A DNA stretch of 64,000 nt from Methanocaldococcus indicus. Lineage in GTDB: Archaea > AGJL01 > Methanococci > Methanococcales > Methanocaldococcaceae. Numbering within the stretch: position 1 is the stretch's first letter; every line of letters starts with the position of its first letter. The stretch spans positions 960,001-1,024,000 of the forward strand of contig NZ_CP186926.1 in NCBI RefSeq assembly GCF_049554935.1, written 5' to 3'. A program made the position numbers and the translations under genes. The notes below the pieces were generated by a model. It did no database searches. It was not told where the DNA came from and saw only the letters and a list, made by a program, of their open reading frames with translations. Positions 58,207 through 59,779 of this stretch are shown here, in pieces.

Positions 58207-58262
58207 TTAATTCACCAAAAAAGATAAAAAATTATAATAGAATAAGATTAAAAATTTAATAT

Positions 58263-59570
58263 TTAAAGATATTCCTTAACTTTCTTTTTAATTCTTTTTA
58301 ATATTTCTCTGTCTGGTAGTACTCCTTCTGGTGGGTCAATAACTTTCTTTAAATCTAATGGGACTCCATCCATTCTATAAGCGGTTCCATCACACTCTAC
58401 TCCTGCTAATGCAGGAGGTAAAATAATATTTGCCAATTCAGTTGTTGGTGTTTTGTGAGGTTCTATACATATCAATGGTATTTTTGCAATATGTTCTAAA
58501 GCTTTTTGTGGGAAATGAGCTCCTGGGTCAGATGCAATATTTAGCATTGCATCAACTAATCCTCTTGTTAATAAATCTATTGCAGAGGTTTCTCCTGGAT
58601 TATAAACTGGATAACCTTTTGAGAAATCAACAGCATAAGCATATCCTGTTAGCCATGTACAAACTTGGTTGAAGCCATTAACGTTGTAGTGTCCTCTCAT
58701 TGGTGTTAAAATGAATTTAGTATATTTGTTTAAGTCAATAACCAATCTAATAGCATTGTCTATGTTTCTATGCTTACCTCTTGTCATTGTTAGACCCATA
58801 CCAAAGAAGAGAGCCCCATATTGAGCATTTTTACATAATTCAACAGTATCATAGATTAAATCAACTGGAACACCAGCTACTCTATCAACATTTAACTCTA
58901 AACCATTTAATACAGCTCTCATAGCTGCAACTAATTCATAATCTTTGTGCTGTTCAACTTTTAAATGGATGTCTGCAATTCTTGTAGTTGCTGTTTCTCT
59001 TGGGTCTACAACAACTAATGTTCTGTCTTTTCTACCTCTTTCTCTCCAATATCCTCTTGGAAATACTGGATATCTTGACATGTGTCTGGGGTGGGCGTGA
59101 ATTGGATTACATGCCCAATATATAACTAAATCAGCTCTATGGGTAGCCTCAGCTAATGTAGCAACGGGGTATCCTGAGTCCTGAACAGCCAATAATGAAG
59201 GTCCGTGTCATATAGTTGCTGTGTTGTCAATAACAGCTCCTAATAACTCAGCTAACTCTACTCCAACAATTTGTGCATGTGTTTCTGTAGAACTCCAACC
59301 ATATAAAAGAGGTCTTGTAGCTTCTGCCAATATTCTTGCTGTTTCATCTATTGCAGTGTCCCAATCAACTTTTTTAAAATCATCTCTTTTGTCTTCTCTC
59401 ATTAATGGCTCTGTATATCTAACAGCTCCTTCAAAATGCATAAATTTTGCATTTCCTATTCTACATGCATTTCTTGTTCCTACTATATGATTGTTTTCCA
59501 CTAAAATCTCTAGGTCATCACAAAGACAACCACAAAATGGACATACTACATTTTTTACAATTTTAACCAT
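58263..59570 (-). CDS. fwdB: Formylmethanofuran dehydrogenase subunit B, selenocysteine form
   Basis: [10 protein letters not shown]; in-frame TGA at 59210-59208 in DNTATI-U-HGPS (Cys position of the CHGPS motif) joins the two track ORFs. Confidence 0.95.
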
Positions 59571-59779
59571 ATTTGCCACCTTGAATAATTAAATTTTATA
59601 ATATATGTGATGGACTAAACTATTTGGATGTTATTGTATTTATCCTCAATTTTTTTATATATAATTTAGCATTAGCTCCATAAATATATGATATTAGAAT
59701 CTTAAATAATATGCTATAACTATAAATAATCTAAACTATAATTTTAATTGAATAAAATTATGTAATGAGGTTTTAGTAT

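Follow-up and report, generated by a model that had tools for sequence, protein, structure and literature searches.

A SECIS element detached from fwdB in Methanocaldococcus indicus, complementary to the fwdB and hdrA messages: a candidate trans-acting RNA

How can an in-frame UGA be read as selenocysteine (Sec) when its gene has no Sec insertion sequence (SECIS) of its own? The question is raised by fwdB of the archaeon Methanocaldococcus indicus, a gene lying in the window analysed here—64,000 nucleotides, positions 960,001 to 1,024,000 of contig NZ_CP186926.1 (assembly GCF_049554935.1), numbered below from its first letter. Read through its TGA, FwdB scores 631 bits over its full length against TIGR03129 (formylmethanofuran dehydrogenase subunit B; cut-off 327.8). 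The gene is single copy, with only one strong tblastn match in the genome, and is 67-82% identical to TGA-bearing orthologs of 32 other Methanococcales genomes (13 of the genus, 19 of the sister family). The TGA occupies the identical position in 33/33 orthologs compared, while one ortholog free of TGA (G021, L086) has a Cys at the aligned position, which we take to be that of the metal-ligand Cys of FwdB. Both tRNA-Sec and SelB are present in the genome.

An earlier note on this DNA, made from the letters alone, had claimed that no cis SECIS is visible at fwdB, and this absence is real. A strict scan of the whole 1.44-Mb genome for hairpins with the GAA/A loop gives six matches, none of them near fwdB. 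R1, a covariance model built from these six hairpins, recovers exactly the same six genome-wide at E<=10; run with its filters off on both strands of positions 56000-61000—the check proposed in the note for the fwdB-mobB-pyrE unit—it finds no SECIS at this threshold. A loose pattern (core GAA, AAA or CAA; A or G as the 3' bulge; one mismatch allowed in a helix 1 of 5 or more pairs; two or more G-C pairs in helix 2) meets about 185 loci in the genome, and none between positions 56500 and 60300. Rfam gave no match in the window at gathering score, and no family at E<=1 on five element loci. The rest of the description also agrees with what we find: the regions 3' and 5' of fwdB are A/T-rich (11% and 17% G+C) with no G+C-rich fold, and the co-oriented mobB and pyrE overlap each other and end on a convergent gene, a plus-strand open reading frame (ORF) whose end at 57011 faces that of pyrE. 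In relatives R1 overlooks hairpins whose apical helix is GGC/GCC, for example the SECIS that hdrA itself carries and the fwdB element in several genomes; the other genomes were therefore scored by pattern scans and by a model of the full element described below, R2.

Five of the six canonical SECIS of the genome stand directly 3' of vhuU, vhuD (which has two UGAs), a HesB-like gene, fruA and selD. The sixth, at 18134-18169, is the only one without a selenoprotein gene upstream: no gene with an in-frame TGA adjoins it, and its downstream neighbour, the gene for a P-II protein, has no TGA. On the other side of this account, fwdB and hdrA are both single-copy genes interrupted by an in-frame TGA, and a canonical SECIS is missing from the vicinity of each. 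They lie respectively 40 kb and 880 kb from the orphan SECIS.

At 18125-18235 the earlier note had pointed to an RNA. The G+C-rich, RNA-like sequence there is real and contains a textbook SECIS, but it must be read on the minus strand, the only one on which the SECIS has its proper polarity (a 5' GAA opposite a single 3' A). The element, aligned with 13 orthologs, has 51% G+C inside a 26% spacer and reads, from 5' to 3', as a guide of about 47 nt, a linker of 16 nt, a SECIS of 36 nt and a U-run. The hairpin matches the strict pattern, scores 42.3 bits with R1 and appears in the minimum-free-energy fold. G-C pairs flank its GAA/A loop on both sides, the apical loop has 4-6 nt according to whether the closing A-U pair is counted, and six pairs of the helix show compensatory changes among the 14 orthologs. 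The predicted fold of the free RNA (-44.2 kcal/mol, z = -2.9) adds to this hairpin a second stem over part of the guide, within which RNAalifold shows no compensatory change across the 14 orthologs, in keeping with a guide under selection to pair with other molecules. A box, TTTTTATATT, stands 20-30 nt upstream of the first guide base, and A/T boxes are seen by eye at similar spacing in the related genomes G008, G015 and G003; such a run resembles the archaeal TATA-box consensus and may be a promoter. T-runs follow the hairpin in 14/14 orthologs. A scan for sigma-70 promoters and intrinsic terminators, unsuited to archaea, gave nothing usable.

What does the guide address? When the 75-nt guide region is compared with both strands of the genome, its longest perfect complements are 23 nt in hdrA and 16 nt in fwdB, followed by an A/T-rich stretch of 13 nt. 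In hdrA the pairing resumes, after a 2/1-nt internal loop, for 10 more pairs. At 80 C the duplexes are worth -28.9 (hdrA) and -18.2 kcal/mol (fwdB); 1500 random genome windows set against the guide average -3.3 with an sd of 1.6, and the lowest of them, at -14.5, falls short of both targets. Both complementarities need the minus strand, as does the polarity of the SECIS. One guide addresses two genes, and only the 5' flank of the SECIS pairs; pairing being antiparallel, the SECIS, which follows the guide on its 3' side, would lie on the UGA side of each duplex.

The element has relatives whose position tells where it comes from. BLAST with the element over 40 genomes of the order, together with R2, gives one full-length copy in 15/17 genomes of the genus, the two others being fragmented assemblies (86% complete). 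In 11 of them (G001, G002, G004, G005, G006, G009, G010, G011, G013, G014 and G016) the copy lies about 50-200 nt past the stop of fwdB, and so is there the SECIS of the fwdB 3' untranslated region (UTR); the sister family has weaker R2 matches just 3' of fwdB, in the genomes checked against gene coordinates. The element is detached in the remaining four. It lies 40 kb from fwdB in M. indicus (G000). In G008 a different contig carries it, immediately 5' of a thi4 homolog, and fwdB is followed by mobB as in G000. In G015 it lies 447 kb from an intact hdrA-vhu-fwdB cluster, between two opposite-strand genes, and therefore cannot be the UTR of any gene. In G003 it is 3.8 kb away, and a convergent gene comes right after fwdB. 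A FastTree phylogeny of FwdB and HdrA (907 columns, 21 genomes) unites these four genomes in one clade with a support of 1.0. Judged by its sequence, the orphan element is the detached ortholog of the fwdB 3'-UTR SECIS of the 11 relatives. We observe besides that thi4, divergent from fwdB in G000, is directly downstream of the detached element in G008 (L007); the surroundings of the element have therefore undergone more than one rearrangement. An A/T box (AAATATAAATATT) is also present, some 25-35 nt 5' of the guide, in the fwdB 3' region of genomes with the cis arrangement (such as L010, L013 and L016-L018); this promoter-like spacing suggests that the element may be transcribed alone even when it stands 3' of fwdB.

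The complementarity to fwdB extends to both families, and its partners change together. We compared the TGA-bearing fwdB orthologs of 14 genus and 19 sister-family genomes. In the sister family the 5' flank of the SECIS complements the coding region in runs of 9-26 nt that start at UGA+21 to +32 (UGA+n meaning n nt past the UGA), in 18/18 of the SECIS found by the scan, which found one at 18/19 loci and missed that of G020, visible in the sequence. In the genus, the complement splits into a site A, of 12-19 nt starting at UGA+24 to +31, and a site B, of 8-14 nt at the same place in 14/14 genomes. Each column from UGA+27 to +41 is paired in 24-33/33 genomes, 14/15 of them in at least 29/33, and at least seven columns of site A present two or more types of Watson-Crick pair. 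Over UGA+24 to +42, 539 of the 627 cells are Watson-Crick; 5000 permutations of the guides among genomes give 479 +/- 5.4 and at most 503, never 539, though the permutation figures, here and for hdrA below, overstate independence because the genomes are related. Within the detached clade the target reads GATGTA (G015), GACGTA (G003), GACTCA (G000) or GATTCA (G008), and in each of the four genomes the guide exactly complements the genome's own target. The Val-to-Ser change in the FwdB of G000 and G008, whose guides are exact complements, thus has its counterpart in an RNA gene at another place in the chromosome. The targets of G000 and G008, two genomes with a common detached fwdB-mobB junction, have come to differ from each other. 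G013 has one uncompensated C.A mismatch in its fwdB pairing. The proposal of the earlier note that this RNA fills the gap at fwdB thus gains, from sequence comparison, an ortholog of the fwdB 3'-UTR SECIS that is antisense to fwdB and covaries with it over 33 genomes; to fwdB as its partner we would add hdrA as a second target, and the fact that the arrangement is common to a clade of four genomes.

The guide is perfectly complementary to hdrA over 21-23 nt, starting at UGA+8 to +10, in 13/13 genus genomes with data, and this second address is confined to the genus. Here 292 of 299 cells are paired (13 genomes), against a permuted mean of 283.2 +/- 1.5, one permutation of 5000 reaching a tie. 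Four columns are compensated: two by synonymous changes in G003, one by a Ser-to-Asn change in G013, and one by GCG versus GCA in G000 and G008. What became of hdrA's own signal can be followed in the 15 genus genomes examined at this locus (hdrA loci compared in all: L064-L072, L075, L107-L127). In six genomes (G001, G002, G005, G009, G010 and G014) a canonical SECIS is present in the spacer 3' of hdrA: its loop is GAA/A and its apical helix GGC/GCC, it is set inside an AGAUGA...CUGAUG frame, and it has a 5' flank of 24-28 nt complementary to the UGA+36 region of hdrA itself. The hairpin is kept with a weaker tether in G004 and G006, and its loop is degenerate in G013. Neither SECIS nor tether was found at hdrA in G000, G008, G015, G003, G016 and G007. 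The fwdB-type guide is kept in five of these six genomes, no element having been found in G007, whose assembly is fragmented. With the element detached from fwdB and the hdrA SECIS lost, all four genomes of the detached clade have, for both genes, no canonical SECIS candidate other than the element. In the sister family 12 of 21 hdrA loci have a canonical SECIS, a lower bound as some of the other nine show a GAA/A hairpin missed by our helix rule, and 10 of these 12 have a complement of 15-25 nt at UGA+26 to +51. As a separate observation, the hdrA-vhuD spacer of M. indicus (contig 1, about 94640-94724; L106/L002) folds into a short AGAUGA...CUGAUGA hairpin with no GAA/A loop. It looks like a kink-turn or a box C/D motif, or like the AUGA...GA core that SECIS have in eukaryotes and in Loki. 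The same frame is present in 15/15 genus genomes, with a canonical GAA/A SECIS inside in some and a plain stem in six.

Altogether, these data suggest that the element is an RNA of about 110 nt, a SECIS acting in trans that would be tethered to the fwdB and hdrA messages by base pairing; we give this reading a probability of roughly three in four. That selection acts on the pairing of guide and target is, from the covariation, close to certain. The SECIS of fwdB would have been separated from its gene and would now be carried, 40 kb away, by a short RNA of the minus strand (from about 18232 to 18122). Its guide would pair with the fwdB mRNA 27-42 and 111-121 nt past the UGA, and with the hdrA mRNA 8-30 nt past the UGA plus 10 more nt. 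The SECIS would so be placed between duplex and UGA, at the entry side of the ribosome reading that codon, and would recruit the Sec-decoding machinery there as a cis 3'-UTR SECIS does. The proposal supposes that the element is transcribed, that its duplexes arise in vivo and that tethering lets the SECIS act on both messages.

The nearest known case is the fdhA1 SECIS described by Peiter, Najdovska and Rother 2025 (PMC11881835): this 5'-UTR element is flanked by 7 + 10 nt complementary to its own coding region, the complement lying 43 nt 3' of the UGA, and the arrangement is conserved in Methanococcales, with longer pairings in thermophiles. Here as there, a flank of the SECIS complements the ORF a few tens of nt past the UGA, in fwdB (33 genomes), hdrA and vhuD; all the long-range SECIS that we examined (fwdB, hdrA, vhuD) pair 8-60 nt 3' of the UGA. 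By contrast, the partners of fdhA1 belong to one mRNA whereas those of the detached element are predicted on different transcripts, with one guide for two genes, pairing by the 5' flank only and longer duplexes (16-23 nt). Sections 9 and 10 of PMC11881835 describe flank pairing for fdhA1 only, and a term search of its main text finds neither fwdB nor hdrA; its supplement has no hdrA or fwdB entry, fwuB being named only as a reporter construct.

The same work also provides points against a tether. In the Methanococcus maripaludis reporter of PMC11881835 the 5'-UTR SECIS is active without complementary flanks, and adding them brings no significant change of activity, a rise of about two-fold being seen only per mRNA. 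As this is the only such experiment and the flanks were dispensable in it, even the cis tether is without a demonstrated function. Besides, no archaeal SECIS is known to work in trans. On the side of our own data, the RNA as a transcript of its own is read from a promoter and a terminator identified by eye; the free RNA is predicted to fold so that a stem of 8-9 bp, which would have to open, takes up part of the hdrA guide; and since the hdrA duplex starts 8 nt past the UGA, the ribosome must melt its first pairs. The searches for SECIS presuppose the GAA/A type, so that fwdB may have a cis signal of another kind, and the relatedness of the genomes, already mentioned, tempers the permutation figures.

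Some of these points could be read in favour of an RNA whose pairing does something else. The hdrA duplex begins 8 nt past the UGA, a spacing typical of roadblocks that stimulate recoding. Genomes in which hdrA has its own tethered SECIS still keep the second guide, and the flanks that the M. maripaludis reporter did not need lowered its mRNA about three-fold (PMC11881835). The SECIS RNA might then act in trans with no tether, a free RNA loading the Sec machinery anywhere, while the duplexes would pause the ribosome at the UGA, protect or cleave the message, or co-regulate hdrA and fwdB with the supply of selenium, for example; we regard this reading as unlikely. But an untethered SECIS could not tell Sec UGAs from the stop UGAs found elsewhere, and pairing at 8-60 nt past the UGA in fwdB, hdrA and vhuD, and at 43 nt in fdhA1, is what a positioning role predicts. 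It is also conceivable, though rather doubtful, that the detached RNA serves fwdB alone, the hdrA UGA being served by the vhuD SECIS on a shared transcript or by the AGAUGA...CUGAUGA hairpin. A shared hdrA-vhuD SECIS has indeed been proposed in Lokiarchaeota (PMC4989117); vhuD starts 97 nt past hdrA in M. indicus, with its SECIS about 1950 nt from the hdrA UGA, and the kink-turn-like hairpin is conserved in 15/15 genus genomes examined. On the other hand the guide keeps with hdrA a perfect duplex of 21-23 nt and four compensated columns in 13/13 genomes, and it persists in five of the six genomes (of 15) that lost the hdrA SECIS and its tether, the SECIS loop being degenerate in a seventh.

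Could the orphan element be without function for fwdB, a 3'-UTR remnant in decay, with fwdB using an unrecognised signal not of the GAA/A type, or a reading of UGA that needs no SECIS? Our scans know only the canonical methanogen SECIS and no archaeal SECIS family of Rfam was matched, but the fwdB flanks have 11-17% G+C and no stable hairpin, and a remnant would hardly have retained all the SECIS features and an exactly matching guide while four genomes diverged and both partners underwent compensatory changes; we hold this possibility for very unlikely. The least probable of all is that recombination or gene conversion between the element and the genes, rather than selection for pairing, keeps the matches alike. 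It is true that the plus strand of the element reads as short pieces of fwdB and hdrA coding sequence side by side. These stretches are nevertheless of 11-23 nt only, inverted relative to the genes and 40 kb and 880 kb off, and the pairing is kept in cis and in trans across two families with boundaries that differ by lineage.

How does a SECIS RNA tethered by pairing compare with other systems? Antisense small RNAs act in trans, and antisense oligonucleotides annealed 3' of a recoding site stimulate recoding. The RNA proposed here would share with trans-acting antisense RNAs its small size and a single-stranded guide that pairs in the coding region past the recoding site; it differs from them in carrying the recoding signal as cargo, and no natural small RNA with such a cargo turned up in literature searches. 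Full-text searches of the library consulted likewise returned no natural trans-acting or orphan SECIS and no description of fwdB or hdrA flanks; the supplementary SECIS alignments of PMC4989117 may show hdrA and fwdB elements. With the methanogen SECIS (PMC9622424, PMC11881835) it has in common the G+C-rich basal helix, the GAA opposite a single A, the short G-C apical helix and the loop of 4-6 nt, but unlike a methanogen 3'-UTR SECIS it does not sit in the UTR of the message it would serve. As for the bacterial SECIS (PMC2933860, PMC13188914), the paired signal would, like theirs, come to within a few tens of nt past the UGA, on the entry side of the ribosome. The structures are however unrelated, the bacterial one being a hairpin in the ORF directly 3' of the UGA, while the archaeal element is not bound by SelB; and proximity would come here from an intermolecular duplex, not from the coding sequence. 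Finally, the SECIS proposed by Mariotti et al. (PMC4989117) as shared by the adjacent hdrA and vhuD of Lokiarchaeota is, like ours, one SECIS proposed for the UGAs of more than one gene; there, however, the genes are adjacent on one presumed transcript, with no base-paired tether described.

Archaeal SECIS are found up to 1.4 kb from their UGA, with no known binding protein, and how they are linked to the ribosome is presented as an open question (PMC11881835, PMC2933860). The cis tether, published for fdhA and seen here at fwdB, hdrA and vhuD across Methanococcales, may be this long-sought link. On balance we lean towards a more general view, in which Sec decoding in archaea would be addressed by RNA-RNA pairing, the SECIS being a portable module and the guide choosing the UGA; in M. 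indicus a free-standing RNA would recode two unlinked messages essential for methanogenesis, fwdB and hdrA. SECIS elements are defined as cis-acting. If the proposal is right, this would be the first natural SECIS working in trans, proximity through base pairing would be shown sufficient for the communication between SECIS and ribosome, and Sec insertion would be programmable by a guide sequence, a simple design for engineered genes. Selenoprotein gene finders that require a SECIS in the UTR would call such genes truncated. The question would also become accessible to direct experiment, since the M. maripaludis reporter already allows mutations in the guide to be compensated in the target.

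Features of the detached element, its two target genes and their surroundings (window positions unless a contig is named)
Feature	Position	Strand	Remarks
T-rich run	18122..18132	-	7 T, then C, then TTT; directly after the SECIS; likely archaeal terminator
Proposed SECIS-guide small RNA	18122..18232	-	about 105-110 nt; ends predicted; single full-length R2 match, E 1e-21
SECIS hairpin	18134..18169	-	9-bp basal helix, GAA bulge, opposing A, 4-5-bp G+C-rich apical helix, 4-6-nt loop
Guide segment for fwdB site A	18186..18201	-	antisense
Guide segment for hdrA	18198..18220	-	antisense to hdrA mRNA UGA+8 to +30, 23 nt perfect
Guide segment for fwdB site B	18219..18229	-	overlaps the distal arm of the hdrA pairing (18222-18231)
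TATA-box-like run	18252..18261	-	read by eye as a possible archaeal promoter; the guide starts about 20-30 nt downstream
pyrE	57524-57003	-	overlaps mobB, same orientation as fwdB; NCBIfam
mobB	58206-57508	-	downstream of fwdB, same orientation; NCBIfam
fwdB-mobB spacer	58207..58262	-	56 nt, 11% G+C, without G+C-rich hairpin
fwdB	59579 (GTG; ATG at 59570)..58263	-	single ORF, broken only by TGA at 59210-59208
fwdB target site B	59087..59097 (UGA+111 to +121)	-	11-nt complement of guide 5' end
fwdB target site A	59166..59181 (UGA+27 to +42)	-	perfect 16-nt complement of guide
Sec codon of fwdB	59210-59208	-	in-frame UGA, context ..NTATI-U-HGPS..
fwdB 5' region	59580..59779	-	200 nt, 17% G+C, without G+C-rich hairpin; divergent from thi4
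thi4	59780-60550	+	divergent from fwdB
hdrA	contig 1, 96751-94727; UGA 96157-96155		selenoprotein gene, no canonical SECIS in 3' spacer

We also noted a few features around these subjects. In the A/T-rich spacer upstream of the SECIS RNA, an ORF of 69 aa is found on the opposite strand (18404-18613, plus strand). Among the other SECIS of the genome, that of the small HesB-like selenoprotein gene (contig 1, 908965-909280, L003) begins at the stop codon of the gene, and its flank complements UGA+82 over 9 nt only; the flanks of the selD SECIS, compared with the selD coding region, have no meaningful complement (7 nt, A/T-rich). In vhuD (contig 1, 94225-94632), 13 nt located 46 nt past the second UGA are the exact complement of a sequence at the end of the vhuD ORF, which sits about 30 nt 5' of the vhuD SECIS; this pairing is seen in 11/11 loci with both parts (L062-L075), with one compensated change, in G003. 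Finally G001, G006, G010 and G014 (L050, L056, L058, L059) each have another fwdB-like gene, only distantly similar (43-45% identical) and also interrupted by an in-frame TGA, and in 4/4 of these genomes a SECIS match follows it 65-100 nt 3'.

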